This document shows positions 1 to 57,689 of a stretch of 64,000 nucleotides of DNA, piece by piece. This DNA comes from Tubiluchus corallicola. Its lineage: Eukaryota > Animalia > Priapulida. A model generated the notes under the pieces. That model saw only the letters and a program-made list of their open reading frames with translations, had not been told where the DNA came from and made no database searches. Within the stretch, counting starts at the first letter, position 1. Every line of letters starts with the position of its first letter. The DNA is taken from positions 11,971 through 75,970 of the forward strand of contig JAQGDQ010000050.1 in the NCBI GenBank assembly GCA_030141605.1, read 5' to 3'. The position numbers and the translations under genes were made by a program.

Positions 1-12
1 ACATAGAATAAA

Positions 13-116
13 ATGACTTACGAAAGGCATCTCAATTCTCCTCTTAGTTTGGAGTTTGAGAATGCCTTCATATCTGACGTGTATCATAAAACACCACAGA
101 ATACCATTGGGAATAA
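13..116 (+). pseudogene. Possible N-terminal fragment of a mononegavirus-like L polymerase (EVE fragment)
   Basis: ATG at 13 reads MTYERHLNSPLSLEFENAF. HLNSPL resembles the (H/N)L(N/D)SP(L/I) motif near the start of paramyxo/rhabdo L proteins. The fragment is very short and rests on one motif. Confidence 0.3.
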
Positions 117-1862
117 CCAATCCTCGGAACGTACCCGAAGAATGACAGGCTGCCGAGTGACAACACCCAGTTGAGCGCCGCTTCGTATGGCTTTGCGAAG
201 CGGTGTTTCAGCTGGGGTGTGGAAAATTCAACAGTTGTCCAGGTAAGCAAGAGGAGAGATAAGGTCCTCGAAAGTATCAAAACGAGAGTGGACCGACCAA
301 TCTATCCTGCACTCCGAGACGAGACAAAAGGCGAACTGCGGCAGGTGATGTGGCACATAAGAAATAAGACCAAGATAAAGTTGGAGCCATTCACCTATGA
401 GGAAATGCTCAAGGTAGTGAACAAGAAAGGAGCTGCAGGACTGTTTGACGACTGGGGTGATATGGAGCAATGTCTCGCCGACCCCACCACACGACCAAGG
501 GTTGAAGAAATAATCGCCTGCTTGAGAGCCGGAATCAATGTGCCGGAATATTACGTGACTGTCAACAACAAGGTTGAGAGCAAAGTAAGCGAAAAGACGA
601 CTCCACGATTGATATCGTACTTCTCGTGCATTGCGAGAATCATGGACTGGATGATCTTCGGCCCGTTCGTGAAACAACACTACACACAAGGGAAAACGTT
701 TAAACACGCAACATCAGGAACACCCTTGTGTGACGTTGGCGATTTGATTGCAACCCACTGGCAGAAATGGAAAGATCAAGGAGACCCTGTAGCTGGCATG
801 GGGGATGCCTCAAAGTGGGACCACTCTTTGTATCCTGAGCTTTTTGCAATGGAATGTGAGTTCGTAACATCATTCTACGAACCAGAGTGGTGGGAAGTAA
901 TCGCCAACATTTACGAACACGTCATTTGGTCACCATGCTTTACTAGGTTGGGATTCGTTTATTCACCGGTCGGCCATCGAATAACTGGTTGGATCTTCAC
1001 CTGGATGAATTCCTTCCTGAACAGTATGTTGCATGAGTGGGCCTGGAAGAAAACACTCGGGATCAAAATGACGGACGACTTAGACAACCATCTTTCCATG
1101 TTGATCGACGGCGATGACAACGTACATATCGGGACCAGCAAAGTCGTCAATGCCATCAACATGAAGAAACTGACATTCTGGATGAAGTCGGTTAACATCA
1201 CAATTCGTTCCAAAGAACAGGACGGATACCGACTTACCACGGACCCAAGAGACATCGACTACCTGTCTCATTATTATTCTCCGGTCTACTTAGCATGCAC
1301 GCCAGAGGATCCAGGCGCATGCCCCCCTTCTTACAACCATGGGATAATGAAGGGTTGGTGGAGAGTGAAGTGGTTGCCCAATAGACCACTCGACGAGGTC
1401 CTGGGGAAGATGTCATACACAATGAAGGCATCTGCGTCCAGAAACACACCAATGCTCGCACGGCAGGCGCTGGAAGGAAAGCAACTGACCGCGATAGAAA
1501 ATATGTATCTGACATTCTGGATGAAGTCGGTTAACATCACAATTCGTTCCAAAGAACAGGACGGATACCGACTTACCACGGACCCAAGAGACATCGACTA
1601 CCTGTCTCATTATTATTCTCCGGTCTACTTAGCATGCACGCCAGAGGATCCAGGCGCATGCCCCCCTTCTTACAACCATGGGATAATGAAGGGTTGGTGG
1701 AGAGTGAAGTGGTTGCCCAATAGACCACTCGACGAGGTCCTGGGGAAGATGTCATACACAATGAAGGCATCTGCGTCCAGAAACACACCAATGCTCGCAC
1801 GGCAGGCGCTGGAAGGAAAGCAAATGACCGCGAATGAGTTCATAACTCATCATGAACGTTAG
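117..1862 (+). CDS. EVE: Flaviviridae-like (pestivirus/large-genome flavi-like) NS5B RdRp fragment
   Basis: The frame is open from 117. VNKKGAAGLF (cf. pestivirus NRKGAAGF), PRLISY (motif F), DASKWDHS (motif A), GHRITGWIFTWMNSFLN (motif B), LIDGDDNV (motif C). The duplicated viral block ends at ~1833. Confidence 0.9.
   Translation, partial: PILGTYPKNDRLPSDNTQLSAASYGFAKRCFSWGVENSTVVQVSKRRDKVLESIKTRVDRPIYPALRDETKGELRQVMWHIRNKTKIKLEPFTYEEMLKVVNKKGAAGLFDDWGDMEQCLADPTTRPRVEEIIACLRAGINVPEYYVTVNNKVESKVSEKTTPRLISYFSCIARIMDWMIFGPFVKQHYTQGKTFKHATSGTPLCDVGDLIATHWQKWKDQGDPVAGMGDASKWDHSLYPELFAMECEFVTSFYEPEWWEVIANIYEHVIWSPCFTRLGFVYSPVGHRITGWIFTWMNSFLNSMLHEWAWKKTLGIKMTDDLDNHLSMLIDGDDNVHIGTSKVVNAINMKKLTFWMKSVNITIRSKEQDGYRLTTDPRDIDYLSHYYSPVYLACTPEDPGACPPSYNHGIMKGWWRVKWLPNRPLDEVLGKMSYTMKASASRNTPMLARQALEGKQLTAIENMYLTFWMKSVNITIRSKEQDGYRLTTDPRDIDYLSHYYSPVYLACTPEDPGACPPSYNHGIMKGWWRVKWLPNRPLDEVLGKMSYTMKASASRNTPMLARQALEGKQMTANEFITHHER
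1170..1833 (+). repeat. In-frame 339-bp-period tandem duplication inside the RdRp EVE
   Basis: 1170-1494 is repeated at 1509-1833 (LTFWMKSV...ARQALEGKQ twice), nearly identical. Confidence 0.95.
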
Positions 1863-1915
1863 AATTCAGATCAATTTGTTCAGAAAAATAGAGTTAAACG
1901 TGTTCAGTATCAACC

Positions 1916-2335
1916 ATGGATATTGAAAACAAAGAATTGAAGAGATTGATAGAAAATCCAAGGTTTGAGAAAAATCCTCCAGAACTTGAGGTCTCAGATT
2001 GGAACCCCAAGGATATGCCCAAGTTTCTACAAAATTTAAAGCTCACACAAGGCACGTCTAGGCCCATTCTCTTACCTAAAAACAATCAGTTTACAGTTCT
2101 GTTGGTAGAACATGTACACAAACTAAACCTTCATGTCGGCGTATCGCAGACCTTAGCATTATTACGTAAAGAGTTTTGGGTTTCTTCTGGGAGGGAACTG
2201 GTCAAGAAAACTTTAAATAAGTGCCGTACTTGTCGGAAAATGGAAGGTGGAGCCTATAAGTTACCACCAATGCCAGAATTACCTCCAGAAAGAGTCCAAG
2301 AATCTAATCCCTTTACACACAAAGACGCTCATTAA
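1916..2335 (+). pseudogene. Chimeric ORF: unidentified 42-aa N-terminus fused in frame to a Bel/Pao integrase zinc-binding piece
   Basis: 2042-2320 matches 9058-9336 of the downstream Pao pol (one substitution noticed). I found no match in the window for 1834-2041. Confidence 0.85.
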
Positions 2336-3602
2336 CATTTTGAAACAAAGGAATAGGATATTGATAAGTCATGTCCCAGCAGCAGAAGAAAACAACCAGC
2401 GAGCAAGACGTTCAGAGATTCATCCTGGCATCCTTAGAAGACGTTAATATAGAAGATCTGAAGAAGGATGCCAAAGACATGATGGAGTTAGTAAAATTCC
2501 AGGGCTTTGATCCTGTGGAGACTGCACGTCAAGTCTTGGAATATAGTGACTGGGGTACTGGTGATGCCCCAATGTCAGATGCCTTGAAGGATGTATCCAA
2601 GATGATAGCCCTATTCCAAGCGAGAGGATCTAAAATTGTCAATAAGTCTGGACAAAACTTTAGAATGAGTGCAGATGGGGTTACTAGAGTTACTAACCTT
2701 ATATCAAAATATCACATCGTGGCATCAGGAGGAGGACAACATGCAAAAGTCCTAACCCTACCAAGGATAGCTTTAGCTTTCCCTTACATCACATGTCAAA
2801 ACTCTTACACTCTTCTTCCCGAGTCTGATACTCTCAGGCAACTCACTTGCACCGCACCAGTCAAACAGACAGCCTTTGCCAGTTTGATACCCAATGATAT
2901 TGAGAATGAAGCAGATTCCACTAGGAGCATGGTGACCACATTAATGTATGCCCATGCATATTGCATGTATGAATTAGGGAAGATCATTGGGGGAAATAAG
3001 AAACTCAGCCAAAGGCAAAGAGTGGATGAGGTGATAAAGTTCATGAATGCAGGAATGAATAGTACAATGATCAAAAAAGAAACCAGGTTCCTAAAGCTAA
3101 TAAGCCTTGGTTTAATAAATCAGACTCGCAATGAATGGGGGCAAAACTCAACTCCTAAAATGCTGATTTATTATGCTTCTATGTGGGAACATGTAAGAGC
3201 TGAGAGACCAGACAGTGCAAGGCCCAAGCATCCACAGGAAGATAAAGATAAAGCAGGACCTTCCCAGTCAACGTAAGCATTCTTACACACAAAGACCGCT
3301 CATTAATAAACAACTAAAAAGTAAATACAGATAGCTTATACCATTTGTCTGACTAAATAAATCAACATGTACACACCTAATATTTACAGTGAGTTTCTTA
3401 AAATGTTAGGGTCTCCACTAACCTCTAGACTCACAAGAGCTAACATTTTCTGATTATTACAACATCATCATTAATATAATGTATGAATAAGCAAATAAAC
3501 TTTACTAAATAAATACATATAGGATATATTATATATCTCTAACTAGCACCATTATAATTACATAATATTGATTTAGTGTTTATCAATAAGCGGTTTTTGT
3601 GT
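2317..3602 (+). other. EVE: apparently complete phenuivirus-like S segment (antigenome sense) with both termini
   Basis: Starts ACACAAAGACGCTCATT (2317) and ends AATAAGCGGTTTTTGTGT (3602). These near-complementary panhandle termini are typical of Phenuiviridae. Contains the N ORF and an AT-rich 3' region. Confidence 0.85.
2371..3276 (+). CDS. Phenuivirus (phlebo/tenui-like) nucleocapsid protein N, intact, 301 aa
   Basis: FQGFDP, KDVSKMIALFQARGSK, MSADGVTRVTNLISKYHI and LTLPRIALAFP follow the phlebovirus N motifs (YQGFD, KKMIVLALTRGNK, MSKEG..V..LI.KY.L, LTLSRVAAA). Confidence 0.92.
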   Translation: MSQQQKKTTSEQDVQRFILASLEDVNIEDLKKDAKDMMELVKFQGFDPVETARQVLEYSDWGTGDAPMSDALKDVSKMIALFQARGSKIVNKSGQNFRMSADGVTRVTNLISKYHIVASGGGQHAKVLTLPRIALAFPYITCQNSYTLLPESDTLRQLTCTAPVKQTAFASLIPNDIENEADSTRSMVTTLMYAHAYCMYELGKIIGGNKKLSQRQRVDEVIKFMNAGMNSTMIKKETRFLKLISLGLINQTRNEWGQNSTPKMLIYYASMWEHVRAERPDSARPKHPQEDKDKAGPSQST

Positions 3603-3612
3603 CCCTTATATG

Positions 3613-4069
3613 TTTACTGAGTTACTGAGGTGGTTCGTCATGCCAAACAAGGATCAAAAGCCCGACGGAAGTATCCCAGCTAGTGCTAGAGACTTAGGCT
3701 ACATTAAACAAGCACGAACCAAGGCAAGGAAAAGCCTGCAAGAGGAAATCAGAGCTGCTAAAGTTCGTACTAGTAATGGTAATATTCTGACTCGTTCTTT
3801 GAGTCAATTGTTTCCTATTGAGTGTCCTAGGTCAGTTGATGCGAGTGCAGCATCTAATGCGGCAGCACGTTTGGGTAAAATTTTGTGCGAGGGCTCAATG
3901 TGCTGATGCTGTGCAGGACAAGTGCCTTTTTCACCTGCACTCGCTTGTTGGAATTTTCTAACAAAATTGTTCTTATAGATCCATTGTTGTTATGCTCACG
4001 TATATTATATAATGATTGTTAGTTTGTTTTTTTCCAAATTGTCTTTTTCTTGTCTTTTTTCTGGGGGAG
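3613..4069 (+). mobile_element. Scrambled Bel/Pao pieces: gag 5' piece, pol 3' piece, inverted piece, deleted 3' UTR plus PPT
   Basis: 3622-3750 = 4609-4737. 3746-3850 = 10208-10312 (AAATC microhomology). 3850-3944 is an inverted copy of the ~10303-10490 region. 3946-4069 is the 3' UTR 10720-10977 with an internal deletion, ending in PPT GGGGGAG. Confidence 0.9.
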
Positions 4070-4291
4070 TGTCGTGAAGTTTGGGCTTCACGATTCGCCC
4101 CCCAGAGAGAAGCCATTGAATTGAATTGATTTTACGTGTAACTGTAGAAAAGAAGTTAGGCAGTTGTTGAGTTGGTATGAAAGGGCAAACTAGCATATTG
4201 TGTTCGAAAAAAAAGGAATAAAGTTTAGCGTTACGACGGTGGTAAAAATTCTCGTCTTTTCGTTTTATTTGTTACAAAAGTCACCACGACA
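4070..4291 (+). repeat. Pao-1 upstream LTR (preceded by a PPT, followed by the PBS)
   Basis: Inverted ends TGTCGTG/CACGACA, internal AATAAA, only a few differences from 10978-11199. Confidence 0.93.
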
Positions 4292-4293
4292 AT

Positions 4294-4313
4294 TGGTGCA
4301 AGGAAACCCGGGA
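4294..4313 (+). promoter_or_regulatory. Primer-binding site (tRNA-Phe-like)
   Basis: TGGTGCAAGGAAACCCGGGA lies 2 nt after the LTR and resembles TGGTGCCGAAACCCGGGA, the complement of the tRNA-Phe 3' end. Confidence 0.75.
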
Positions 4314-4602
4314 ATACCAGGAACATTTAGATGCGCTTATTAGAAAGCATTTCAAGTGCAAAATAAAGACTATTTCGGCACATAAAAGTAAACGGGTGTC
4401 TACGTACGGTTTTACCTGGCTTCAAGCTTTTGACTTGCAACGTTTGTTAGCGAAATCTGTTTGGACTATGAACGATAATGAACATAATCTCGTATTATTG
4501 AGCTCCTTTGAAGATGATCGTAACTGTCAAGTTTCGAAAAGACTGTGCGGAGTCAACAATGAACTATTTTTGTTGCTGAAACCTGTTGATTAACATCGAA
4601 CT

Positions 4603-7600
4603 TTGACTTTACTGAGGTGGTTCGTCATGCCAAACAAGGATCAAATGCCCGACGGAAGTATCCCAGCTAGTGCTAGAGACTTGGGCTACATTAAACAAGC
4701 ACGAACCAAGGCAAGGAAAAGCCTGCAAGAGGAAATCGAGCTAGCTAACGAATTGGTGTCAAGAGATGAGTCAACGATTGGTGACATTTCAAACTATCTG
4801 CAGCGTGTCAAGATGTGCAAACATACTCTCCAGAATCGTTTGGCAAAGCTGGAAGATCTCACATTAAAGTTCTCGGAGCGTGGTATGACAGCTGAGGCAG
4901 ACGAAGCAACAATTAAAGCAGCAGACCAGTACTTGGAGGAAGATAACGAATTCCTTGGCACGGTATCTCAAGTTACCTTTTTGTTAGATGAATGTATTAC
5001 TAAGTTTTCTGTAAAAAATGTTAAAAGGGATTTAACTGATGAGTTTCACACTGTTTCTGAGATACCTCATAGTCGTGCAGTTGATAAAAAACCTACTGTT
5101 GTTCATGCGGCTGCGTCCGCATCTCAATTTACTGATAATGACTCACCTGTTGCTCCGCCCCGTCGCAAGAGAAATACTAGTCTTGCCCCCATCACGCTAC
5201 CTAGTAGTAACCTTGTACAGTCACGCAGTTATGTTAAACTGCCAAAATTCGAACTGAAATCATTTTCTGGGCAGATTTTAGAATGGCGTGAATTTTGGGA
5301 TGCGTTCAAAACTATGGTTCATGATCACCCAGATTTAGAAAATATTCAAAAATTTCAGTATTTGAAGAGCAAGCTTACAGGTCCTGCTCTTAGTGCAGTA
5401 GAAGGTTTTTCACTCAGTAATGAAAACTATTTGCAAGCGTTAGATGTTTTAAGAAGCCGTTTTGGCAAAGAACAAAGCATTATTAATGTACATTATAAAG
5501 CTTTGGCACATCTTGAAAAATCCGGAGAAAATGCTAAAAGTCTTAGGAAATTTCAAGATAGTCTTGAGTTGCACTTGCGAAGTTTGGAGGCAGTGGGTGA
5601 ATGCGTGGACAGCCGTGTTATTATCCCATTAGTATTAGAAAAATTACCACGTTCAGTAGTGCAACAAATGCGCATTACAATGGACCCTGATAGCGCTTGG
5701 TCAGTTTCAGATATAAGACAACGTCTTAATCGCCACATTTATACTTTAGAAGCGGTTGAAAATGAAACAGCTGCCTCCAGCTTTCAGCAACCATTCTCTA
5801 AGGCTAATGAGAGATTTCCTAAGAAGTTTGTAAGTGCATCAAGGCACGAAACTGTTCTTGGAGCTTCTGATAAGCAAAGCTCCGCCCACACGCCACAACG
5901 TAAAAACGTTAGCGCACATTCTGATTATCCAGCACGCAATTGTATTTTTTGTAAAGGCCCACATTGGGCAGATCAGTGTGGCAATTTTGCTACAGCTAGA
6001 GAGAGAAAGAGACTTCTGAAAAATCGTTGTTTTATTTGTCTAAGAGAAAATCATCAAGCTCACCAATGTAGATCAGGCAGAAGCTGTTATTTCTGCCATA
6101 AAAATACTCATCACCGTAGTTTGTGCACAGAGCAATTTCCAGATAAAAATCGAGAAGCAACACTAGCTTGTTCACCCAGTTTAAGTTTGTATTCTAGTAA
6201 TGAACAGGTTGTCATGCAAACAGCACTCGTTCGTGTTAGTCATCCTGTTTCTCACAAGACTATTACAATTCGAGCCTACCTTGATTGTGGTTCTCAGTCC
6301 AGCTATATTAGTGCTAGGCTGGCTAATTTGCTGAATGTTCCTAAGGGCACTTCTGAAGTGCTTCAAGTAGCTACATTTGCAAGTAAAAATGTTAGGCAAA
6401 TTTCTTGCTATCCTGCAAATATTGGTTTGCATACGCGCGATGGGCGTGTGTTAAATATGACCCTACGTGTGATTCCAGAAATATCGCTTAAAACTAAACG
6501 CGAGGCCCTCCCACACAGTTTAATTAATAAGCTGTACAAGAGATTCGGCTATGATTTGGCTGACAGTTTCCCAACCCACGTGGCTGAATCTTCTATTGAC
6601 TTTTTGATCGGTAATGATTACTATTTGTCACTTTTAGAGCCTCAGAAATTCCAGGTAGGGCCTGATTTGTTTTTGTTTGGATCGAAAATAGGTTTAATTC
6701 TCGGTGGATTCTTGAACAGGAAACCCAGTTCGAATGTCGACAAATCTCGAGTGTCTGGCTTCTTGTGCATACAGCCTGGGTTAAATACTCACGGATTAAA
6801 TTTAGAATATGAACAAGAAAAATTTGAACATTGCAGTATTACTGAACGCGCGTTTTCATGCCTAGATTCTGATTCAAGTTTTACGTGTGTAAAGCAAGAT
6901 TTTGATACTAATTTTGCACTTGAACGATTTTGGGACCTTGAAAGTCTAGGCATTCGTGAATCACCGTCACGGACTCAAGACGCTCAAGACGACGTAGCGC
7001 TAGATTTATTTAATAAATCAATCAAATTTGAAGACGGACGCTACAATGTATCTTGGCCCTGGCGACAAAATAAGCAGGCCTTACCCGACAATTATCATAT
7101 TGCTGTGAGCAGATTAAATTCTTGCTTAAAACGGCTTCGCAAACAGCCTGGGATATTGGCTAAATACGACCAAGTAATTAATGAACAACTCGAGAAGGGA
7201 ATCGTTGAAGTTGTGAGTCCAGAGTCTCCCGAAGGTCCTATTAAACACTATATTCCCCATCATTGTATTGTCACACCTGAGAAAAGCACAAAATTACGAA
7301 TTGTGTACAATGCTTCATGTAAAGCAAACAAAAACAGTCCTTCACTCAATGAGTGCCTATACAGGGGACCATTGCTACTTCCTGATTTATGCGGCTTGTT
7401 GTTGCGGTTTCGCTTACATTTAATAGGCATTGTAAGCGACATAGAAAAAGCGTTTTTAAACGTAGGCCTAAATTACGAAGATAGGGATGTCACGAGATTT
7501 CTGTGGGTAAAAAATGTCAGCAAACCCCCTTCGGATCCTGGTAATTTGCAAATATTTCGCTTCTGTCGAGTCATTTTTGGAGCTATTAGTAGCCCATTTT

Positions 7601-10524: not shown

Positions 10525-10977
10525 ATTTGTCAAACCGTTTGATGTGATTGTGCAAATGTATAATAAGATTTTCATTACTATATGTTCAAATTTGCAATGT
10601 ACCAATGTGCTATCTACATAGTTGTGACCTTTATTTCATTGTTTAATTTTGTATGACAAACAAGAGGTACTTAACATGCAAAAATTGCATAGATTTAAAG
10701 TTAAGACCCAGATAGCTATTGTTGGAATTTTCTAACAAAATTGTTCTTATAGATCCATTGTTGTTATGCTCACGTAATTGTTATTGTATAATGATTGTTA
10801 GTTTTTTTCCAAATTGTTTTCCTGAGTGCTTGAGTGTATTAGATTTGGCCAATTTGATGTGTATTATGTATTGTATCTTTGTGCATTGTTTTTGATTCTG
10901 CATTGTAAGAAAATTTTTGGTGAGAGCCTGCGGTTTATGTGTCTTGGTAATACTTTCTTGTCTTTTTTCTGGGGGAG

Positions 10978-11199
10978 TGTCGTGAAGTTTGGGCTTCACG
11001 ATTCGCCCCCCAGAGAGAAGCCATTGAATTGAATTGATTTTACGTGTAACTGTAGAAAAGAAGTTAGGCAGTTGTTGAGTTGGTATGAAAGGGCAAACTA
11101 GCATATTGCGTTCGGAAAAAAAAGAATAAAGTTTACCGTTACGACGGTGGTAAAAATTCTCGTCTTTTCGTTTTATTTGTTACAAAAGTCACCACGACA
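10978..11199 (+). repeat. Pao-1 3' LTR
   Basis: Follows PPT GGGGGAG and matches 4070-4291. Confidence 0.95.
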
Positions 11200-12508
11200 G
11201 CATTTTTATGCGATGGGGTTAGGTCCTCTACAAGTGGTTATGGCTTTTAAAATGGCTGTATTAAATGGTTCTTGTTCGAGTGCAGGAGTGGTCCTGGGAT
11301 CATGGGCCCTGGGATGGGTTCTCTCCTCAACGACAAACTCCATCCAAACATTACTTTCTGAAACAACAGTTTTAAATAATAACTCGGATGATAGATACGT
11401 TTTCTCTGGTGAACATCCTGGCAAACATTTTGGGATGATTAATGAATATCACAAGAAGCTTGTTCAGCTAACAAGTGGGGAAGACCAAGACCAAAAAAAG
11501 ACCGGAGAACCAAGTTCTGGAGATGCATTGAACAATCTACCCCATCTCAGAACAGACCCCAAACAAAGATATGCCAACGTTCTTACACATGACGTCATCG
11601 AATTCTGGGACAGCCTGGAGACCTATTTTGAAACAGCAACAAGCGAAAATTGTGCCCAGGAGCTGGACTCACTTTGGTTTTTAGTAATGATACTGACGAG
11701 AGCCGCAGGAAAGTCGAGACCGGTAATTAAGAAAGTGTTTAGTCAAGAGATAGAAAACTCCATGGACGCAGTTATGGACAATTTTAGACCTATAGGACTC
11801 AAGGTCGGAGAATGCCTTTATAATCCACTCTACAAGGCTTTCTCAAAACCTGAAAATTGTGCCCAGGCCCTGATAACGTTAGGTCTTTGCGTTCAGACTG
11901 AAAACATAATAGGAAAGGGAGAAAAAGAGCTGTACAAGTACGTAAATTTTGCCGTTATGTGGCATCTAACTTGGGCATCTTTGATCCTGCCACAACTTTT
12001 GGCAACAAAGCTTGACCAAAACAGTCTAGTAAGCAAAATAGGATGCTCTTGGACTCTTGAAGAGCTGAAAAGACTTGAACTGTTCTGGCAACAATACCTG
12101 GGAGAAGAAGACAAATCGTATTTATATGCAAAGATCTTCAATCAAAATTCGTTTACGAACATAAGTGCCGCAAACAATCCCGTATTGACCACAGTGCTAC
12201 TTCACATCATTGCAGATGACGCAAATCCAAATGACCCAGGTGCTAGCATTTGGAACTATACAAAACCTGAAGTTTCTCCTACAGTAGAGGAGTTTGCCAA
12301 GCAACTCGGAAGGATTGTTCGGAGAGATGCAGCCACCTCATCCCAGAATGAGGGATCATTATCGGTAGTTGAGGCCATGAGCAACATAACATTCCATGAC
12401 GCGAGTCAACAACGAGTTCCAACTATGCAAAAATCAATAGGAGAAAGGTCAGAGTCAGAAGAGGAGGAAGAATATGACCGGAAACACAACAAATTATTTT
12501 TCGAATAA
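11147..12508 (+). CDS. EVE: mononegavirus (rhabdo-like) nucleoprotein, open frame reaching back into the Pao-1 LTR; viral part from ~11330
   Basis: SYLYAKIFNQNSFTNISAANNPVLTTVL resembles the conserved YA(R/K)..(D/N)..F..L...N.P.L region of rhabdo-like N. Acidic C-tail (SESEEEEEY), intronless, open for 453 codons. Confidence 0.7.
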   Translation: MVKILVFSFYLLQKSPRQHFYAMGLGPLQVVMAFKMAVLNGSCSSAGVVLGSWALGWVLSSTTNSIQTLLSETTVLNNNSDDRYVFSGEHPGKHFGMINEYHKKLVQLTSGEDQDQKKTGEPSSGDALNNLPHLRTDPKQRYANVLTHDVIEFWDSLETYFETATSENCAQELDSLWFLVMILTRAAGKSRPVIKKVFSQEIENSMDAVMDNFRPIGLKVGECLYNPLYKAFSKPENCAQALITLGLCVQTENIIGKGEKELYKYVNFAVMWHLTWASLILPQLLATKLDQNSLVSKIGCSWTLEELKRLELFWQQYLGEEDKSYLYAKIFNQNSFTNISAANNPVLTTVLLHIIADDANPNDPGASIWNYTKPEVSPTVEEFAKQLGRIVRRDAATSSQNEGSLSVVEAMSNITFHDASQQRVPTMQKSIGERSESEEEEEYDRKHNKLFFE

Positions 12509-16889: not shown

Positions 16890-18086
16890 TATATTTAATA
16901 TATATAAAATCTTTATTGCGGAAGTTATACCTATAACAGTCAAAGACAGTTGTAGGCAATAGTGTTAAATTAGAAAAACAAATTTATAAAAGTTAATTAA
17001 AAAAAAATAATTTTGCACGAGGTCCAGTTTGTTTAAATGATTTCTTGGTAGATTGATTAGTAGGTGACACCGTAAGTTAAATGAGGAAGGACCATGGTTT
17101 TGTAGAATAATAGTTTAGTTTTGATATTAAGATATTTGCCTTTTCTTGTTTGAGAAAAAAAGACCTTGTCCCATTTTTTGTACGATGCTATTAACTTGAT
17201 TGTCCCATTTTAATTTATTATTAATTTTCATACCTAGGAATTTGGTTTCTTTAGATTTACAAATTGTTTGATTAAGAACGTTAAGTGTTGAGTTATCAGT
17301 TTTACATCCTTCATTTGGGCTTAATATTAGAAATACTGTTTTTCAGGGTTCATTTGTAAGTGATGAAAATCCAGAATTGATTTCATTTCTTCTATGTTTT
17401 GTTTTAGTGTGTATACAGCTGTATTTGGGTCTGTGTTATTTGAAAATAGATTGGTATCATCTGCATATTGTGTCATGCTGCAGTTTTTTAGAATATTTGG
17501 AATATTGTTTACCTAAATAATAAATAACAGTGGCCCAAGAACTGTGCCTTGCTGTGCCCCATGTTTGATCGTACCCCATTCTGGACATACGTTGGTTTGA
17601 AGCTTTACTCGTTGTTGTCAAAAGCTTTGCTAAGGTCTAAAAAAGCTGTGGAAATATATTCATTATGATCTAATAGATCGCGCCAGTTTTCTGTCACGAA
17701 AATTATTGCATCAATTGTACTATGATTTTTTCTGAAACCTAATTGCTGTTTGTGTAGTATTTCTGTATTATCAAGGTATTAACATATTTGCTCGTACATA
17801 AATTTTTCAAATATGTTAGCGGCTCCATGAACTACTGATAGTTATTAGGATCCTCTACGTTTTTGTTTTTCGGCTTAGGTGTGACGTTTGCAGTTTTACA
17901 GGTATTTGAGAATTTAGAGCGCATTATCATTTAGTTATAAATATAGCATATGTGTTTTGCTATTATGCTGCCACTGATTTTAATTATTTTGGATGGTATG
18001 TCAAGTGGTCCTGAGCTTTTAGAATGTCTCATTAAATTTATGGTGTTTATGACCTGTAATGTTGTTACTGGCTCAAAATTGAATAT
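16890..18086 (-). pseudogene. Decayed non-LTR (CR1/L2-like) reverse transcriptase fragment
   Basis: The minus strand encodes FLDLSKAF, QQGTVLGP and QYADDT with stops and frameshifts. Confidence 0.8.
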
Positions 18087-18962
18087 TGCGCAAATAAGGG
18101 TGGCTCAATTAACAATCTCGACTTATTTGGTGAGTCTTGAAATCCGATCAGAGGAAATCCGATCAGAGTTGCTCTAAGGGGTCTGGAAGCACGTGTCCAC
18201 TTGCAATAATTTTGGCCTGGACAGCTGATAGTAAATATTGGTGGGAAAAGTTTTTGCAGTCATGGTTTTCAAAACAAACGATGTGTCCGAATGGTCATTA
18301 AGATTGGGTACTGCGCCTAGAGTATTGGTCGTAAAGGCTTTGATTGCTTAGTAATGATGAGGTTTTATACACAGCATATGTAATAGTGATGGTATTCTAT
18401 TATGAAGTTCCCAGGCCTTTTCACATAAAAGAGACTTGTAGGCTCCTGGTCAGTCTTTTTCCAATTTTGCTAGTATAGTGGAGGTGTGTGGTTCGAGTTC
18501 TAGTTCGTTTGTCGTTTAGTTTACTGATTTCATAAAATTGTATAATGGAGTGTGAAATACCAACCGGTTCCTATTTGCTGGGGGTAGAGCCTAAGTTTAC
18601 TGATGGGAGCTTTTACAATGTACTCGATGAAGGCGAGTACTTATATCAGCAGGCCACTCGCGAGTTAAAAAATATACATCTGCCTGGCACATTTGAGAGG
18701 TTCTTCGGCAAATCTATTATTAATGGAGTAAGTAATAGTTTTAGTAATAATCACTATTATGCTACCCGTATCAATAAAATCGCTGTATTGATGATTTTGA
18801 AGCTAAAAGGAAATTTGTCTCAAAGAACTCTTTTAATAAAGATTTATATTCATTTTACAGGAGGAGTTAGTGATAATTAAACTCAGCAATATTTTTGGAA
18901 TGCCGGTCATGGCGAAATTATTGGACGGATTTGCCCCGGGCAGAGTAAGATTTATTAATCGT
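17018..18962 (+). repeat. ~1.94-kb direct duplication, copy 1 (copy 2 at 26275-28204)
   Basis: Near-identical sequence. Copy 1 has an extra 15-bp GAAATCCGATCAGAG unit. Confidence 0.95.
18545..18962 (+). pseudogene. Unknown small spliced gene family, copy 1 (exon 2 truncated by the phenuivirus EVE)
   Basis: Exon 18545-18727, GTAAGT..TTTACAG intron 18728-18860, exon 2 from 18861 broken at 18962. Confidence 0.65.
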
Positions 18963-18968
18963 CATTTG

Positions 18969-19522
18969 ACACAAAGACGCTCATTAACATTTTGAAACAA
19001 AGGAATAGGATATTGATAAGTCATGTCCCAGCAGCAGAAGAAAACAGCCAGCGAGCAAGACGTTCAGAGATTCATCCTGGCATCCTTAGAAGACGTTAAT
19101 ATAGAAGATCTGAAGAAGGATGCCAAAGACATGATGGAGTTAGTAAAATTCCAGGGCTTTGATCCTGTGGAGACTGCACGTCAAGTCTTGGAATATAGTG
19201 ACTGGGGTACTGGTGATGCCCCAATGTCAGATGCCTTGAAGGATGTATCCAAGATGATAGCCCTATTCCAAGCGAGAGGATCTAAAATTGTCAATAAGTC
19301 TGGACAAAACTTTAGAATGAGTGCAGATGGGGTTAGTAGAGTTACTAACCTTATATCAAAATATCACATCGTGGCATCAGGAGGAGGACAACATGCAAAA
19401 GTCCTAACCCTACCAAGGATAGCTTTAGCTTTCCCTTACATCACATGTCAAAACTCTTACACTCTTCTTCCCGAGTCTGATACTCTCAGGCAACTCACTT
19501 GCACCGCACCAGTCAAACAGAC
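18969..19522 (+). pseudogene. EVE: second, 3'-truncated copy of the phenuivirus S segment/N gene (ORF 19023-19538)
   Basis: Starts exactly at ACACAAAGAC and matches 2317-2870 with two noticed substitutions. Ends flush at the Pao-2 LTR. Confidence 0.93.
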
Positions 19523-20838
19523 TGTGAAGTATTTCTGAAGGTAAAATAGCTAAGACATCAGTATATTGCAGAACACAGGTGAGTTTATTTATAAAAAATC
19601 AGTAACAGCACATGTTGATTCAATGCTCTCTGACAGCCAACTCCCAGGTAAGTTTTTCTGTGAAGCAAGGAAGCCAGCAATTCTATGAAAGGTAAATGTT
19701 TTGCATACTACATAGTTCAAGGATGAAAGTTTAGACTGTATATGAAGAAATAGACATTTTACAGCTGAAATTTCTTGTGTGGGATTTTTAACTGTTTTAA
19801 CCACAGAATGCAATAATATGACATAATGAATAAAAAATAATGACATATGACATAATAATACAAAATAATGACATATGACATCGTGAACTTCACGACACTC
19901 CGACCAGGAAGTTGGAAATAACATAAACTATTTGATACTTTAACCTTTAAAGTCATTTAACTTTTACAAGAGATAAATTTTGTTGTCATTTCTTAATCAT
20001 TTTAAGAATAACATCTAACATCTTAAGTACGAAATGGCGCCACCAAGCAGTTTGGGCGCCGTGGATAAATACGAATCACATCATTGCAAAACGGAGTATT
20101 TGGGCTATGTACAAAGAGGGTAAGTTTTTTTAATCTAATTTAATAGTGGCATTAAATTTCAAAGTAATTTTGTATATAACTATCACGCTACATTCGTAAC
20201 AAGTTTCATTACACACAACTTAACGATAAACTTAATATTTCTCTATTGAGTTTCACTACAAATAACATTCAATCTCTAGATTACAAAATCATCATGACGA
20301 TTTGAGTACAAAGTATCGATTTAGGATACAAATTCGTAACAAAGGGCATCGATTTAGGATGCAAATTCGTAACAAAGGGCATCGATTTAGGATGCACACG
20401 ATTTATCAATCGTTAGATTTAAATTACAAGTAGATTGCTAACCGAGGACATGCACAAGTATTAGCAAGTATAATAAGCAATGACATACAGCATTGGTTAC
20501 TCTTTGTGTTTATGATAAAGTTTGTACAGCATTTGCTTGGTTTGCCTGTAGGTTATGCTGTACATGGTCTATCACACAATTAGACACAATTTATTAATAA
20601 CATTTCTATGATTACCTTTTTCAGGTTTATAACAAAGAGCACATTTTGTGCACAAGGTAAGTATAAGGTAACTCGGGTAAGTAATATTTTAACAACTTCA
20701 TAAGCAGCTATTCAAACAGTGTTAACAATAACAACAACAACTTGTTATTCAAATGATGTTAACAACAATAGCAATACTAAACAATGCAAAACTTATTTAC
20801 AAAATCTTTAATGTTTCTGATTTTACAGGTAGATTTGA

Positions 20839-23800
20839 TTAAGGTGGATCTTGGGATTTAACAGAAACAATTCGATACAAGTGGAAAGTTTTCCGACATT
20901 TCCAGGATCCACGTGGTAAGTTTAAATCAGTAATCAGAATTACATCATTATCGTTTGACGGAATAATTACAACATTTTTCATAGCGTTTGGCTTTCTGAT
21001 TTGTGTATATGCATACTGTGTCAAAGATAGCCACATGATTTTAAATGGAAATTTAATTCCATACATGAAAACTTTTATGGCTCTAAACATGAACGCAATA
21101 AGAAATAAAAGCCAATCCAGAAAGGAAAAGTCATTAATATTAATAACTTTACCAACAGCTTTATGACATGTGACAATGTCAGAAATAAGACACCCACTTT
21201 CAAAGGGTACTTCCTTTTTGAGGGGTATTTCTGACTGTATTTGAGATGTCTCTTCTGAAGCCAGTGTAGGAACTGAACTGGAAACAGGCGAAACATCTGG
21301 TCGTGTTGTCTGATAGTTATCAGTTACAGACTCTGGACCCGTTTGGTGTATCTCAGATTTGGAGTATCTTAATGTACTACTACTATTCAGTAATGAATCC
21401 GTTAATGTGCAATCAAGCTCAGGCTGAAGACAAAATAATGAGTTTTCTGAACAAATTATAGATTCATTGTTCGCCAAGGTGTCTGTTTTTTCAACTACCC
21501 CTGTAAGTATATAGCCTAAAAGGCTTGCATACAGGAAGAGGCCGGGTGACACTTCGTGTTTTTCTGCTCCTAGAATTTTGAGGTAGTTATCGCATCCAAT
21601 TAATAACTGCACATCACCTTCAAGGTTCCCTTCAGGAAGTGAGTCAGCAAGTTGGCCCTCCCATGGCTTAAGTTTTGAGTACACTTGGGTTGGAAGAGAG
21701 GGGCGACCTCTGAATTTTGCAATAAACGGGACTACTCGAACATCGATATTAATTCTAGTAGAATTATTTTTGCCAAACAATGCAACCTTTGCTTGATGAC
21801 ATCGTACAGGAACATACCCTTTACAAGCAAATGTAGAAACATTCACATAACTAGGATTTTCCAATTTCAGATTTAACTTTTTTGCTAATGACTCTGTAAT
21901 GTATGTGCCATTACTATCTGTATCCATCAAACCTCTAACTGTAATACCTGATTTAGAATTATTAGAGACATCAGAGTGGCACATTCTCACTAAAACTGTC
22001 TGCATAAGTACAGCTTCTGTTTCTGAATTAAACATGACTGTGTCACTGAGTAAGTTTTGTTCTAATTTTGCCTCGACAATTCTGTTATTTTCAACTTTAT
22101 CACAAAGTGAAACGTGATGTTTTTGGCCACACACAAAACATGTAAATTTGCAGTCAACCTCAGTGTGTTTACTAGAAAGACAGACTTTGCAACGTTTACG
22201 CTTTTCTACTACTTTCAGTTTTTCTGCTATGGTAAACTTGTTGCAAAGGCCTGAAGAGTGTTTTCGGTTGTCACAATATAGACAAGGCATTTTAATGCGG
22301 TTATTCTGTGATCTCTTTGCCTTGTCCTTATTGTTACCATTGCTAGTAACTCTTTCTGAACCTTTTGGTTTGTAACTTTCAGCATGTTTTGATTTTTCAG
22401 CTGCAGATGTAGTGAGAGACAAGTCAGAGTTATAAACCATGTCATCATCGTTGCCAACTGCATTGTATAGAGGGAATGTACTGTCGCCTGCTGTAAGTAC
22501 ACTTTCTTTAATCTGAACAGATGCTGGTCTGTGATAGTTTGTACGAATGGGTTTCTTTAAAATTTCTTTAAGGCTTTGAAGCCCACACTCATTAGTAGAA
22601 ATCTCAAAGTTGTTCACATATCGATACATAGTATCTATTAATCTCTCTAATTGCCAATTAGAACCAGGAGTAGTATCTGGACAAAGGTTTCTAAGCTGAA
22701 AACCCATGGTTATGGGAAGTTTCTTAAGAATGCCTGAGACAATGTATTGATCATCGACTGGACGACCTAACACTGTCAATGACCTTATAATGACCTCTAT
22801 GTCATCAAGAAACCTTCGTAAATCTTTGGCGTTGTTTTTGACAGGTTCTATGTCTTCAAGTTGTTTCAGATAATTTGTCACCATGTGATCAGTTCTGCCA
22901 AAGCGTTTCATCAAGTGACCAACAGCAGCAGGATAGTTATTGGCAGTTCTACGGTATGTCTTGATAATTCTATATGCATTCCCTTTCAAGCAGCCCAACA
23001 AGTAATTGAACTTTTTACTATCCGTTAAATCGGGTCTTGAGTGTATTTCATCATTAAAAACACTCCAAAATTCTTCAAAATCATCATCACCCTCCCCCGA
23101 AAAGGAAGGCAATTTAAATTTTGGCAATCTAGTATACACAGTGCTTGCATGACTAACGTTCCAGGGATTTAGCTGTGATGTCATATTAGGCACAGCAGAA
23201 ACAGGTGTGCTTGATACTACAGGTAATCTAGTATACACAGTGCTTGCATGACTGACGTTCACAGCATTTAGCTGTGATGTTATATTAGGCACAGCAGAAA
23301 CAGGTGTGCTTGATACTACAGGTACAGGTTCACTGACCTTCAAGTGACAGGTTTCTAATGACCTAATTCTGGCTTCAATCTTAGAACTAAGTTCAGACAA
23401 ATTTCTGTTCAATGTAGTTTGTGAAGCAAGAAATTCTTTAACTTCATCCAAATGGGAACTATCATCTGAACTACAATAAATATATGATAGCTTGTCATAC
23501 AACTCTGTGAGCTTTTCAGTCGAAAATCTCAAATCAGCAATTGCAGCATTACATCTGTCAACAAAGTTTTGATAATTAGCAATACATTCGTCAAATTCTA
23601 AGTCTAACAATGTAGTACATGTGAAAAACACCTCACCATAGTGCTGTGAGTTTATTTTCAGGTTCTGGATCAGTATCTTCACCTCCAGCTGGTGTCCATG
23701 CAATGGATCTTTGTCTGGAACCATCTTTGGAATTGCTCCAGTCGCAGCTGTTGGGGTGGCTCCATGTACTGGGGTAGCTGGAATATGTAGTTGCTGCCCA

Positions 23801-23886
23801 TAATCCGGTTCCTCGTCGTCTGAGTCCTTAGAAGCATGGTCCATAATGGTCACTCCTTGCTTTGATGAGTCCTTGTTTGGTTGCAT
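20839..23886 (-). CDS. Pao-2 gag-protease ORF with pol remnants; RT, RNase H and integrase core missing
   Basis: LPKFKLPSFSG..FEEFW, three knuckles, LMDTDSNGTYIT protease, then only INDFSFLDWLL..FRAIK and LPRGSWK remnants. The original gag start is probably near 25628. Confidence 0.9.
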   Translation of the reverse strand: MQPNKDSSKQGVTIMDHASKDSDDEEPDYGQQLHIPATPVHGATPTAATGAIPKMVPDKDPLHGHQLEVKILIQNLKINSQHYGEVFFTCTTLLDLEFDECIANYQNFVDRCNAAIADLRFSTEKLTELYDKLSYIYCSSDDSSHLDEVKEFLASQTTLNRNLSELSSKIEARIRSLETCHLKVSEPVPVVSSTPVSAVPNITSQLNAVNVSHASTVYTRLPVVSSTPVSAVPNMTSQLNPWNVSHASTVYTRLPKFKLPSFSGEGDDDFEEFWSVFNDEIHSRPDLTDSKKFNYLLGCLKGNAYRIIKTYRRTANNYPAAVGHLMKRFGRTDHMVTNYLKQLEDIEPVKNNAKDLRRFLDDIEVIIRSLTVLGRPVDDQYIVSGILKKLPITMGFQLRNLCPDTTPGSNWQLERLIDTMYRYVNNFEISTNECGLQSLKEILKKPIRTNYHRPASVQIKESVLTAGDSTFPLYNAVGNDDDMVYNSDLSLTTSAAEKSKHAESYKPKGSERVTSNGNNKDKAKRSQNNRIKMPCLYCDNRKHSSGLCNKFTIAEKLKVVEKRKRCKVCLSSKHTEVDCKFTCFVCGQKHHVSLCDKVENNRIVEAKLEQNLLSDTVMFNSETEAVLMQTVLVRMCHSDVSNNSKSGITVRGLMDTDSNGTYITESLAKKLNLKLENPSYVNVSTFACKGYVPVRCHQAKVALFGKNNSTRINIDVRVVPFIAKFRGRPSLPTQVYSKLKPWEGQLADSLPEGNLEGDVQLLIGCDNYLKILGAEKHEVSPGLFLYASLLGYILTGVVEKTDTLANNESIICSENSLFCLQPELDCTLTDSLLNSSSTLRYSKSEIHQTGPESVTDNYQTTRPDVSPVSSSVPTLASEETSQIQSEIPLKKEVPFESGCLISDIVTCHKAVGKVININDFSFLDWLLFLIAFMFRAIKVFMYGIKFPFKIMWLSLTQYAYTQIRKPNAMKNVVIIPSNDNDVILITDLNLPRGSWKCRKTFHLYRIVSVKSQDPP
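23126..23323 (-). repeat. 99-bp in-frame tandem duplication in Pao-2 gag
   Basis: PVVSSTPVSAVPN(I/M)TSQLN..NVSHASTVYTRL occurs twice. Confidence 0.9.
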
Positions 23887-23964
23887 TGGCTGGAATAATT
23901 GTCCAGTCCTTATGTCATGACCTTTAGGTTCACCCTCCCACGGCGGCGTATAAAGAATAGTCTT
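23724..23964. repeat. 241-bp direct repeat of Pao-2 gag sequence flanking the glycoprotein insert (other copy 25355-25595)
   Basis: TCTTTGGAATTGCTCC...AAGAATAGTCTT is present on both sides of the insert. Confidence 0.95.
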
Positions 23965-25354
23965 ACTCCCTTCTTCTCTTTTGTGGTCTTCTGGCGTTTA
24001 GTCAAGGTACAATCTCTAGTGTTAATAGTATCATTCCCCAGCTAGCATATGATACTATATACAAGCATCAAGATGCGCTGGCAACTTACGGTATTGTTAT
24101 AACTGAACCGAGGCCTCTAGGCTATCAGGTAGCTCAGTCGTTCAAAGTGGTTAAAATCGAGATGACCAAAGCCTGGACTATCCGTTATAACCTTTTTGGA
24201 AATAAAAGCAAGAATAAATCTTCCAACTATACCAATAGGAAAAAAAGATTTTTAGGGCTAATAATGTCAACAGCAGCAATGGCTGAAGCTACAGCTGCAC
24301 TAGCTCTTGGTGCAACTAATAGAGCAGAAATCAACTCTCTGAATTCCAAGATGAATGAGTTGAGACAAAATCAAGGTATTATTGAGCACGAAGTCCAAAT
24401 TATGAACAAAGAAATTGGCATCCTCGGACACGACCTCGAAGAACTCGAAAAAATAGTAGGGAATTTAAATAATGAGGTTCATAGTTTAATGGTCGCCCAC
24501 TCAAACGACATGAGAAGATTGCATGACTATCTTAACTCAATTAGATATGGTCATGGTCTGCAGTCAGTAACTTCTACGAGGATTGATCCGTTATTAATTA
24601 GCCCTACCCAATTTGATTCCTTAATGTCGAATAAAAACAACGATATTCCCCTATCTTATGGTGCCAGTAGGGCAATTGTTATCCGGTCAGAGCCCCAGCA
24701 ACTATGGATGCTTATCAACGTACGTGAAATAGTTCAAATCCCAGGAAAAGTTCATGTAAGAACTCGAAACATTCCGATTGTGAAAGGAGGAACATGGATA
24801 GTACATGGGAATGCATTTAATATGATATTAGGGAACAATGAGATTCAAATTATCCCTCCTAAGAGCTGTCAAGATTTAAATGTAATAGTGTGTCCTAAAG
24901 ATCTTAAACCTCAAGCATTTGATCAGTCAATTAAGTACGAGCGATCGCCAGAAAACTGGGGTGTCACCACTCTTATGGGAGGCTGGCTAGTACAAAAGCA
25001 AGCAAGCTACTCACTGAGAATTGTGTCAAAAGTCACAGGAGTCACTGAGAAAACAATCGGAAAAAACTCCAGCATAGTCCTCACCTGTAAGAAAGCAGAT
25101 GAGTACCATTTACCTGGGTACTTCTTAAAGTGTAGTGATACTATTCACAGAATCAAAAGTTGGATTCCCACTCTTCAAAACCACAATCTTACAAGTTATA
25201 CGGACGAAATTAACGCACTGATTAACAAGACACATGCTCTTCTTCTTTCACATCATGAGATGTCTCCTTTGTCTTGGTATGAAGACTACTCGTCAGCAAA
25301 GGACTGGCTATGGTTAGTCACCATTGTAACATGTATTGAAGTAAATACTCTTCT
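23965..25354 (+). CDS. EVE: class I viral fusion glycoprotein (paramyxo/pneumo F-like), lacking start codon and C-tail
   Basis: The frame is open from 23964: signal-like SLLLFCGLLAFSQG, LATYGIV, furin site RKKR, fusion peptide FLGLIMSTAAMAEATAALALG, long heptad repeat, Cys-containing region, C-terminal hydrophobic WLWLVTIVTCI. Confidence 0.85.
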
Positions 25355-26274
25355 TCTTTGGAATTGCTCCAGTCGCAGCTGTTGGGGTGGCTCCATGTAC
25401 TGGGGTAGCTGGAATATGTAGTTGCTGCCCATAATCCGGTTCCTCGTCGTCTGAGTCCTTAGAAGCATGGTCCATAATGGTCACTCCTTGCTTTGATGAG
25501 TCCTTGTTTGGTTGCATTGGCTGGAATAATTGTCCAGTCCTTATATCATGACCTTTAGGTTCACCCTCCCACGGCGGCGTATAAAGAATAGTCTTGTCGC
25601 TTGTGGTTGTTGTGGTGGCCATACTCAAACAAGGTTAACTTGCAGTCGTCTGGATTCCAAATTAGAAGCACCAATACTGTCCATATATTTAGCACTCAGT
25701 GTAAACAGGAACAGAGTCACTGTATCACTTGGTTTGCAGCCTTGTACTAAGCAAACTGATTTCTTTTCCAAGCAGAGCAACTGTATCACCTGGTTTGTAG
25801 CTTTGTAGATATCAAACTGATTTTTTTCCTTTCAAATAAAGTCCTAGCATAATTTCCTTGGTTCTATAAACTTGTATAAAATGAAGAATTTCTGCACCAT
25901 GTGAAGTATTTCTGAAGGTAAAATAGCTAAGACATCAGTATATTGCAGAACACAGGTGAGTTTATTTATAAAAAATCAGTAACAGCACATGTTGATTCAA
26001 TGCTCTCTGACAGCCAACTCCCAGGTAAGTTTTTCTGTGAAGCAAGGAAGCCAGCAATTCTATGAAAGGTAAATGTTTTGCATACTACATAGTTCAAGGA
26101 TGAAAGTTTAGACTGTATATGAAGAAATAGACATTTTACAGCTGAAATTTCTTGTGTGGGATTTTTAACTGTTTTAACCACAGAATGCAATAATATGACA
26201 TAATGAATAAAAAATAATGACATATGACATAATAATACAAAATAATGACATATGACATCGTGAACTTCACGACA

Positions 26275-57649: not shown

Positions 57650-57689
<40 letters not shown>

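Follow-up and report, generated by a model that had tools for sequence, protein, structure and literature searches.

The first 26274 nucleotides of the window (i.e. the whole stretch of 64,000 nucleotides analysed here) contain a real cluster of virus-derived genes and Bel/Pao retrotransposon sequence. In agreement with a preliminary description of this DNA, four viral-like coding stretches are present in this part (1–26274), all located on the plus strand and adjoining or lying within Bel/Pao sequence. Host genes identified in the window correspond to a C2H2 zinc finger, LRR, Ig and a nuclear-receptor remnant, with ordinary host genes being located 12–30 kb from the viral pieces. A gypsy pol was observed at 30835–33489 on the minus strand. 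Scanning of 109 of the 119 short ORFs (the other 10 being repeat copies or already scanned) revealed no additional viral genes, no tRNA was found in the window, positions 1–30000 gave no Rfam match and an exact look-up of eight window proteins returned none (0/8).

The leftmost viral piece (1..1862, plus strand; open frame 117–1862, the left end of which may lie outside the window) is a polyprotein fragment encoding a pesti-like (Flaviviridae-like) RdRp. The deduced protein is of the NS5B type with a GDD motif, and matched NS5B of BVDV/CSFV (E 6e-12), the Pfam profile RdRP_1 (1.8e-9) and a viral polyprotein (L001; 56–57% identity; 56% over 463 aa, at 120–1496). Pestiviruses represent the nearest solved relatives, and homology places the fragment as Flaviviridae-like. 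A 325-bp tandem duplication was identified within the RdRp (1170..1833, plus strand), the two copies of which (1170–1494 and 1509–1833) are identical at 324/325 positions.

A phenuivirus N unit (2317..3276, plus strand) consists of a family-type 5′ end (ACACAAAGAC), four letters of which are common to it and the preceding Pao piece, a 54-nt leader and a complete N ORF (2371–3276). The deduced product is a Tenui/Phlebo N protein, as is typical of Phenuiviridae, with matches to Tenui_N (1.9e-18) and to phlebovirus N structures (8e-11). A second, cut copy (18969..19522, plus strand; 552/554 identical to copy 1) stops exactly at an LTR of a further Bel/Pao element, Pao-2. The S segment had been described as present twice; two N copies do exist, but each possesses the N-side end alone, with no matching far end directly after the N stop. 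The terminal 10-mer occurs three times on the plus strand, compared with 0.15 occurrences expected, and is located at a unit edge in every case. A 316-nt AU-rich non-coding unit (3287..3602, plus strand; longest ATG frame 28 codons) was shown to possess phenuivirus-type complementary ends, with a panhandle of ~25 bp and a fold to which none of 100 shuffles was equally stable (z −3.88). The ends at 2317 and 3287 differ by a one-base shift beyond position 10; in the consulted part of PMC9363447, such a shift near position 10 of segment ends is described for some Phenuiviridae, and the 5′-ACAC ends, complementary termini and shift found here conform to that family (cf. PMC9363447 and PMC8238005, both consulted in part). 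The unit is a candidate defective or mini segment, or may represent two joined segment ends. Phenuivirus L and M segments were absent among the scanned ORFs of the window, and a search for a phenuivirus N homologue in viral contigs was without result.

N copy 1 and the 316-nt unit belong to a 9.2-kb Pao-1/phenuivirus block. At its left edge (2023..2320, plus strand), 22 nt of Pao-1 in inverted orientation (reverse complement of 8357–8378) are followed by a Pao integrase piece (2042–2320; 278/279 identical to 9058–9336). Scrambled Pao-1-family pieces (3613..4069, plus strand), comprising a gag start, a pol 3′ end, an inverted piece, a 3′ UTR and a polypurine tract (93/103 to 24/24 identical to Pao-1), precede the full Bel/Pao element Pao-1 (4070..11199, plus strand). 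This element exhibits TG...CA LTRs (4070–4291 and 10978–11199; 218/222), a PBS-like TGG after the left LTR, a polypurine tract before the left LTR and a single gag-pol frame (4594–10524, 1976 codons) that specifies gag-PR-RT-RNH-INT with Pao domains. At least six Pao pieces, including two in inverted orientation, make up the mosaic edges of the block, with 2–5 letters common to both sides at several junctions. That Pao RT wrote the phenuivirus block is well supported by these Pao pieces, scrambled and partly inverted on both sides, and by the short common letters at the junctions. No target-site duplication (4–6 bp) was found for Pao-1, the block or Pao-2, and the integration route is therefore not canonical. 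LTR pairs had been characterized as near-identical, which holds for Pao-2 (375/375), while those of Pao-1 differ at 4/222 positions; the identity of the latter was rejected as an age clock, since the left LTR, being preceded by a polypurine tract, is likely part of the mosaic.

The block is followed by an N-like ORF (11201..12508, plus strand), which resembles mononegavirus nucleoproteins. Its match to Pfam Rhabdo_ncap_2 extends over 190 residues of the profile and falls below the cut-off (E 0.003–0.005; 17 bits vs a cut-off of 25), while homology searches identified no significant relative and a single-sequence fold (pLDDT 36) was too poor for use. Two matches from one search were dropped, as both are repeat proteins. 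An A8 run 3′ of the ORF (12587–12594) resembles a gene-end signal. The sequence weakly suggests a mononegavirus nucleoprotein. On the opposite side of the block, a non-RdRp, non-Pao stretch (1834..2023, plus strand), which by itself gave no Pfam match, contains an ATG-initiated frame from 1916 and likely corresponds to the 5′ portion of the N-like gene, severed by the block; the gene is likely to have been interrupted by the 9.2-kb block. Positions 11200–11380 were considered as an inverted viral piece and dropped, the minus-strand frame being short and without support.

Further to the right, a 1.93-kb direct repeat (copy 1 at 17016..18962, plus strand; copy 2 at 26273–28204, 99.1%) brackets N copy 2 and Pao-2. 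The latter (19523..26274, minus strand; LTRs 19523–19897 and 25900–26274) is an internally deleted Bel/Pao element that encodes gag-protease followed by the C-terminal DUF5641 region, and lacks RT, RNase H and integrase. An F-like class I fusion protein insert (23965..25354, plus strand) is located within the Pao-2 gag, antisense to it, and is flanked on each side by a copy of the same 241-bp Pao stretch (23724–23964 and 25355–25595; 240/241). Its location in gag and this duplication provide good support for the insert having been written by Pao RT. The insert lacks its own start codon and is cut within a C-terminal hydrophobic stretch; it displays the anatomy of a paramyxo-like F, encompassing a basic cleavage site, fusion peptide, heptad repeat, cysteine region and membrane anchor. 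It matched Pfam Fusion_gly at E 0.003–0.009, and homology searches revealed no sequence relatives. In a protein atlas (score 0.95), the three best clusters are mostly Negarnaviricota Fusion_gly and 10/10 best named matches belong to the same clan, at a recognition value (1652) under the reliable level and with baculovirus-F/gypsy env clusters also scoring 0.90–0.95. A single-sequence fold (pLDDT 34) was too poor for use. The features of the insert suggest, with moderate confidence, a paramyxo-like F.

Profile and homology searches thus bore out two of the four viral identities proposed in the preliminary description: those of the RdRp and phenuivirus N are firm at the sequence level, both being homologous to RNA-virus genes, as expected of endogenous viral elements (EVEs), whereas those of the N-like and F-like genes were not established by sequence search. 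The accompanying claim of intact frames did not hold, as N copy 1 is the sole whole viral gene; the RdRp, N copy 2 and F-like pieces are cut and the N-like gene is likely interrupted.

Contigs (not reads) from several samples were compared with positions 1–16800, for which contig depth does not equal copy number. Sample X1 is DNA by guess and may be the source sample, while the type of X4 is not on record; the two derive from two studies. Contigs of both cover the RdRp, N and N-like genes, and DNA joined to host or transposable element sequence was accordingly observed at contig level in more than one sample (X1 and X4). The most abundant contigs skip the 9.2-kb block: position 2021 is joined to 11199 in both runs (X1 depth 759, X4 depth 10), and the block is therefore likely a later insertion into a composite of RdRp and N-like gene. 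Presence/absence among individuals, put forward earlier as a check, is to this extent observed, in the form of an allele without the block in two runs (contig joints, 1–16800), and repeated, recent acquisition is supported by alleles that differ between runs and by near-identical duplicates. The RdRp duplication branch is present in two runs, the X1 and X4 contigs both starting at 1794, 30 nt ahead of the single differing base of the duplication. In X1, the block-specific positions 3361–3920 were covered at 178x, similar to other low-copy parts (146–188x), and depth arithmetic for bin 2801–3360 assigns 178x to a remainder of 114 nt, consistent with a single contig that extends from the N stop into the panhandle unit; none of the listed contig pieces bridges the junctions at 2023, 2317 and 3610. 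X4 showed no cover at 3361–3920, an observation weighed only alongside its joint across the block, and contains the N unit in head-to-tail arrangement, with ~20 times the neighbouring depth (contig depth, not copy number). X5, with the same species label as X1, yielded Pao and repeat pieces at 90–95% only and left the viral parts of 1–16800 uncovered, making it a poor control rather than proof of absence, and X6 gave no contig matching 1–16800.

Collectively, the cluster probably consists of non-retroviral EVEs from at least two, and likely four, unrelated RNA viruses, acquired in separate nested steps through template switching by Bel/Pao RT. Two units, the phenuivirus block and the F-like insert, are directly chimeric with Pao, and their anatomy supports the earlier proposal of virus capture via Pao RT; the RdRp and N-like gene adjoin Pao solely because the 9.2-kb block intervenes, other copies being without it, and their Pao neighbour likely came later. 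In the proposed history, fusion of the RdRp fragment with the N-like gene would first have produced a single composite, of which a form lacking the block also exists. The phenuivirus N unit, the 316-nt panhandle unit and Pao pieces, scrambled in one cDNA and joined via a shared LTR to full Pao-1, would then have entered the composite, with a clean LTR terminus at the right-hand end and irregular sequence at the left; the presence/absence of the block is observed, while this mechanism is inferred. The deleted Pao-2 may have gained the F-like gene through a template jump away from its own RNA and back again, generating the 241-bp duplication, and may have ended up against N copy 2 within the 1.93-kb duplication. 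Subsequent duplication of the units probably took place at the level of ordinary DNA, to an extent varying between individuals. Precedents for LTR-virus chimeras and for defective genomes as templates are found in the consulted parts of PMC5857290, 10.1101/127498 and 10.1101/2020.04.02.022509.

An unlikely alternative is that two pieces alone are viral, with a non-viral N-like frame and an F-like insert that is the envelope gene of a retroelement (errantivirus, roo-like or loki-like). F-type env resembling paramyxovirus F is widespread in invertebrate retroelements (PMC13524379, consulted in part), rows 10 and 23 of the atlas results for the F-like insert are Baculo_F/Gypsy clusters and the N-like gene is without significant relative. 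However, the best atlas clusters and named matches of the F-like insert favour Negarnaviricota, it lies in gag and antisense to Pao-2 rather than in an env position, and it shows no likeness to an env-like remnant at 28400–28942; the 190-residue span of the N-like match to a viral N profile and the direct fusion of this gene to a viral RdRp in two runs likewise argue against this alternative. Partial misjoining of real repeats and viral inserts during assembly is considerably less probable still: many exact repeats are present, the block is missing from the most abundant contigs and the contig comparison stops short of the 17–26-kb junctions, yet X1 covers block-specific sequence at low-copy depth, the junctions contain unique fillers and inverted pieces, duplicates differ by 1–2 bases and the RdRp duplication branch recurs in two runs.

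Nested capture is compatible with a further reading that adds a putative function, namely a working piRNA-cluster-like antiviral archive, in which a minus-strand transcript would yield antisense small RNAs against all captured viruses. This is conceivable, if somewhat less than probable. Every viral piece is on the plus strand, several virus families are represented in a single stretch rich in TEs, similar to Aedes cluster 2q44.4 (10.1101/2020.04.02.022509), and a mollusc N-derived probable EVE gives antisense 5′U small RNAs (PMC6085071; both sources consulted in part). Conversely, the one-strand bias is weak, reflecting at most four independent events (~1/8 by chance), and ordinary host genes are located at 12–30 kb. 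Pao-1 is likewise on the plus strand, but Pao-2 and the gypsy pol are on the minus strand, and a minus transcript would therefore be sense to both; the antisense-memory argument from strand is correspondingly weak. More doubtful is the reading of a germline locus, possibly of a non-arthropod animal, at which Bel/Pao RT would still be sampling the RNA virome. Such a locus would have acquired an entire phenuivirus defective or mini genome, including its two termini, and would insert newer captures into older ones; in some individuals, it would amplify a full nucleocapsid unit ~twenty-fold, thereby providing heritable antiviral protection that can be tuned, through antisense small RNA or a dominant-negative N.

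The kind of locus is already known from Aedes piRNA clusters. According to the consulted parts of 10.1101/2020.04.02.022509 and 10.1101/127498, CFAV-EVE-1 of Aedes aegypti was inserted with three Pao fragments, and nrEVE-rich piRNA clusters of this species (2q44.4) similarly combine multiple virus families per locus near Ty3/gypsy and Bel/Pao elements, with post-integration duplication, rearrangement and polymorphism. Unlike those clusters, the present locus is known from DNA sequence alone, one viral block is nested in another and segment-type ends are kept; furthermore, 543/614 LTRs in Aedes have the same polarity as their EVE, whereas one insert here (F-like) is antisense to its Pao host. 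Chimeric viral/LTR DNA formed on defective genomes in Drosophila and mosquitoes (PMC5857290, in part) likewise joins discontinuous viral pieces to LTR-element sequence, and is paralleled by the defective-genome-like unit and by the head-to-tail or circular form in X4; those chimeras are transient and from infected cells, whereas this locus is assembled chromosomal sequence among host genes. Bel/Pao elements with Chuviridae glycoproteins and retroelements with F-type env (PMC13524379, in part) resemble the present case in having a fusion-protein-like gene in Bel/Pao with identical LTRs. In contrast to those elements, the class I F-like insert is truncated at both ends, antisense and located in gag of an RT-less element, and is therefore not placed as an envelope gene. 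The rhabdo-like N probable EVE of the dog whelk (PMC6085071, in part) is also a nucleoprotein-derived insert in an invertebrate, but represents a single gene with small-RNA data, compared with a multi-virus mosaic known from sequence.

New here are the 316-nt phenuivirus-ended unit resembling a defective genome and the head-to-tail N unit in a second sample. With the panhandle unit, the defective-genome route to viral DNA, shown to date for transient DNA of insects, would be documented in a chromosome. Virus capture at this locus can be resolved into orderable steps, as the newest block is present in one allele and missing from another and samples differ in copy level, which makes the effect of EVE gain or amplification on small-RNA output or infection testable. 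The pieces, moreover, record a host together with its undescribed viruses, comprising a pesti-like virus, a phenui-like virus and, probably, one or two that are mononega-like.

The long reading frames in the first 26 kb of the window are located on the plus strand at 117-1862, 2368-3276, 4594-10524, 11102-12508, 19020-19538 and 23961-25421, and on the minus strand at 20839-23997. The first frame (117-1862) encodes a pesti-like RdRp, matching both pestivirus NS5B structures (E 6e-12) and Pfam RdRP_1, and represents a fragment with an internal 325-bp tandem duplication. Its nearest relative found was L001 (56% over 463 residues of the polyprotein), ahead of P0001 (50%). L001 (1-7668) is a viral contig whose polyprotein extends across 2555 residues and is open at both ends. 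Positions 2371-3276 encode a complete phenuivirus N (Tenui_N, 1.9e-18; phlebovirus N structures, 8e-11).

The F-like insert (23965-25354, plus strand) exhibits a signal-like start without an ATG of its own, a basic cleavage site, a hydrophobic fusion-peptide-like stretch, a heptad region, cysteines and a membrane anchor that is cut. Its match to Pfam Fusion_gly was below threshold and homology searches returned no sequence relatives, while a protein atlas placed mostly negative-strand-virus F clusters on top (0.94-0.95), with low recognition and env-like clusters close behind. The only match of the N-like frame (ending at 12508, plus strand) was to Rhabdo_ncap_2 (E 0.003-0.005 across 190 residues), other searches being blank or spurious, and the predicted folds of both proteins were too poor for use. 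Based on these match strengths, the sequences firmly indicate two viruses (pesti-like RdRp and phenuivirus N), with the F-like insert likely representing a third and the N-like frame a lead to a fourth. F-type env genes are described as common in invertebrate retroelements (PMC13524379), so the F-like insert may conceivably be a retroelement envelope; that this is the case, and that the N-like frame is also non-viral, leaving RdRp and phenuivirus N as the only viral genes, is considered unlikely.

The phenuivirus terminal motif occurs three times on the plus strand (2317, 3287 and 18969), versus 0.15 expected, and the N start lies 54 nt past it. The second N copy (18969-19522) shows 2 mismatches to the first (2317-3276) across its 554 bases and stops at the LTR of Pao-2. 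The preliminary description had recorded these phenuivirus pieces but overlooked a 316-nt AU-rich panhandle unit (3287-3602), whose phenuivirus-type ends are mutually complementary over ~25 bases. Its fold was unusually stable (z -3.88; 0 of 100 shuffles equally stable) and its longest ATG frame is at most 28 codons. Long-range alignment of its two halves scored 55, versus a shuffle maximum of 60 (n=500), indicating that pairing is confined to the ends. The 5′ ends of the panhandle and N units are identical except for one added base past position 10; Phenuiviridae termini are reported to start with ACAC, with a one-base shift at position 10 in some (PMC9363447, PMC8238005). The panhandle unit represents a complete segment of defective or mini type or, alternatively, a pair of segment ends fused in reverse transcription. 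Short unassigned stretches adjoin it on either side and may be cap-snatched leaders.

The Bel/Pao element Pao-1 (4070-11199, plus strand) is full, with every Pao domain and catalytic motif present. Its left LTR is preceded by Pao-1 3′ UTR and a polypurine tract, and its LTR pair differs at 4 of 222 positions; the left LTR is therefore likely common to Pao-1 and the mosaic that it ends. This mosaic (2023-4069) comprises at least six Pao-1-family pieces, two of them inverted, around the phenuivirus units, and several junctions have 2-5 letters in common, including four (2317-2320) common to a Pao piece and the viral end. In Pao-2 (19523-26274, minus strand) the two 375-bp LTRs are identical and RT, RNase H and integrase are missing; the F-like insert lies within its gag between two 241-bp copies, and two 1.93-kb copies bracket the second N copy together with Pao-2. 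No canonical target-site duplication was found at either Pao element. The LTRs of Pao-1 and Pao-2 (4070; 26274) start with 10-12 identical letters, their proteins being just 27% identical.

Four listed sequencing runs, from two studies, contained at least half the words of 1900-11800, and contigs of four of six listed runs were aligned to 1-16800. Position 2021 was joined to 11199 in contigs of runs X1 (depth 759) and X4 (depth 10; different sample and study). The locus thus exists in two forms, the RdRp and N-like composite also occurring without the 9.2-kb phenuivirus/Pao-1 block, which was likely inserted within the N-like gene, with 1916-2023 as the likely 5′ part. No contig piece listed across 1-16800 spans 2023, 2317 or 3610. 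In X1, possibly the source sample of the window, setting the depth of the distal N-like contig (187.5) to one gives 4.3 over RdRp, 4.0 over the joined contig, 2.0 over phenuivirus N and 0.95 over the panhandle bin; a leftover 114 nt fits a contig running from the N stop to the panhandle unit. In X4, whose library type is not on record, the N unit end was joined to its own start (3280 to 2317) at a depth of 234.5, 18-23 times that of neighbouring contigs, indicative of either a tandem array or circles; contig depth in both runs does not equate to copy number. The seven letters intervening at this joint are the reverse complement of letters at 3603-3612, the far-end flank of the panhandle unit, and one short stretch thus precedes two distinct phenuivirus-type ends.

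Template switching by Pao RT probably generated the phenuivirus block as well as the F-like insert, with non-canonical, possibly one-ended, integration and subsequent duplication at the DNA level. A jump during first-strand synthesis would imply a template antisense to F, like a negative-strand genome. Pao authorship, previously proposed for all four viral genes, is accordingly narrowed to these two, as the position of the block inside the composite makes the proximity of RdRp and N-like to Pao-1 secondary; the left flank of the composite falls outside the window. Gene intactness held for the first phenuivirus N copy, but RdRp is a fragment, the second N copy and F-like insert are cut, and the N-like gene is likely interrupted by the block. 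Viral frames do lie on the plus strand, but they stem from four independent events at the most (1 in 8 by chance), and both Pao-2 and gypsy run the opposite way, which makes strand bias a weak argument for the proposed antiviral memory.

The host of the window is an animal, and outside the first 26 kb animal genes and transposons were found. Near the cluster are a single-exon C2H2 zinc-finger gene (50490-52586, plus strand), LRR and Ig-domain exons (54206-57800, plus strand) and an additional zinc-finger fragment (63184-63423, minus strand). An intronless, frameshifted nuclear-receptor remnant (38267-39219, plus strand) retains zf-C4 and ligand-binding domain pieces across three frames. Downstream of a gypsy pol (RNase H, integrase; 30835-33489, minus strand) lies a fragment without a Pfam match (28400-28942, minus strand) that resembles an env remnant. 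An 819-codon frame (34318-37121, plus strand), flanked by an inverted repeat (33944-34071/37478-37603), has a cysteine-rich C-terminus and no significant Pfam match; its product resembles an unclassified DNA-transposon-like protein. A dispersed repeat family (18087-18923, 27344-28389, 29299-30389 and 39881-40143; copies ~70% alike) has a 112-114-codon frame without a Pfam match. Further repeats comprise a 17-bp minisatellite just 3′ of the N-like gene (12826-12932), a Tc1/mariner-like fragment (14496-14807), and 63-bp and 91-bp tandem arrays (60365-60656 and 63390-64000).

In Aedes, EVEs are reported to occur in uni-strand piRNA clusters next to gypsy and Pao elements, most of them sharing the polarity of those elements (10.1101/127498), with more than 10 nrEVEs of different families in each of five clusters and one new EVE that arrived with three Pao fragments (10.1101/2020.04.02.022509). 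Defective genomes are described as favoured templates for chimeric viral DNA (PMC5857290), and EVE-like sequences are reported from a mollusc (PMC6085071) and ticks (PMC11237458). A literature search mostly without subscription papers turned up neither a phenuivirus panhandle unit in a chromosome nor a tandem N array, which does not prove novelty. The locus is a real, recent and variable multi-virus EVE cluster of a kind already known, with an anatomy distinguished by unusual nesting, a defective-genome-like unit and a whole N unit that appears to have been amplified.
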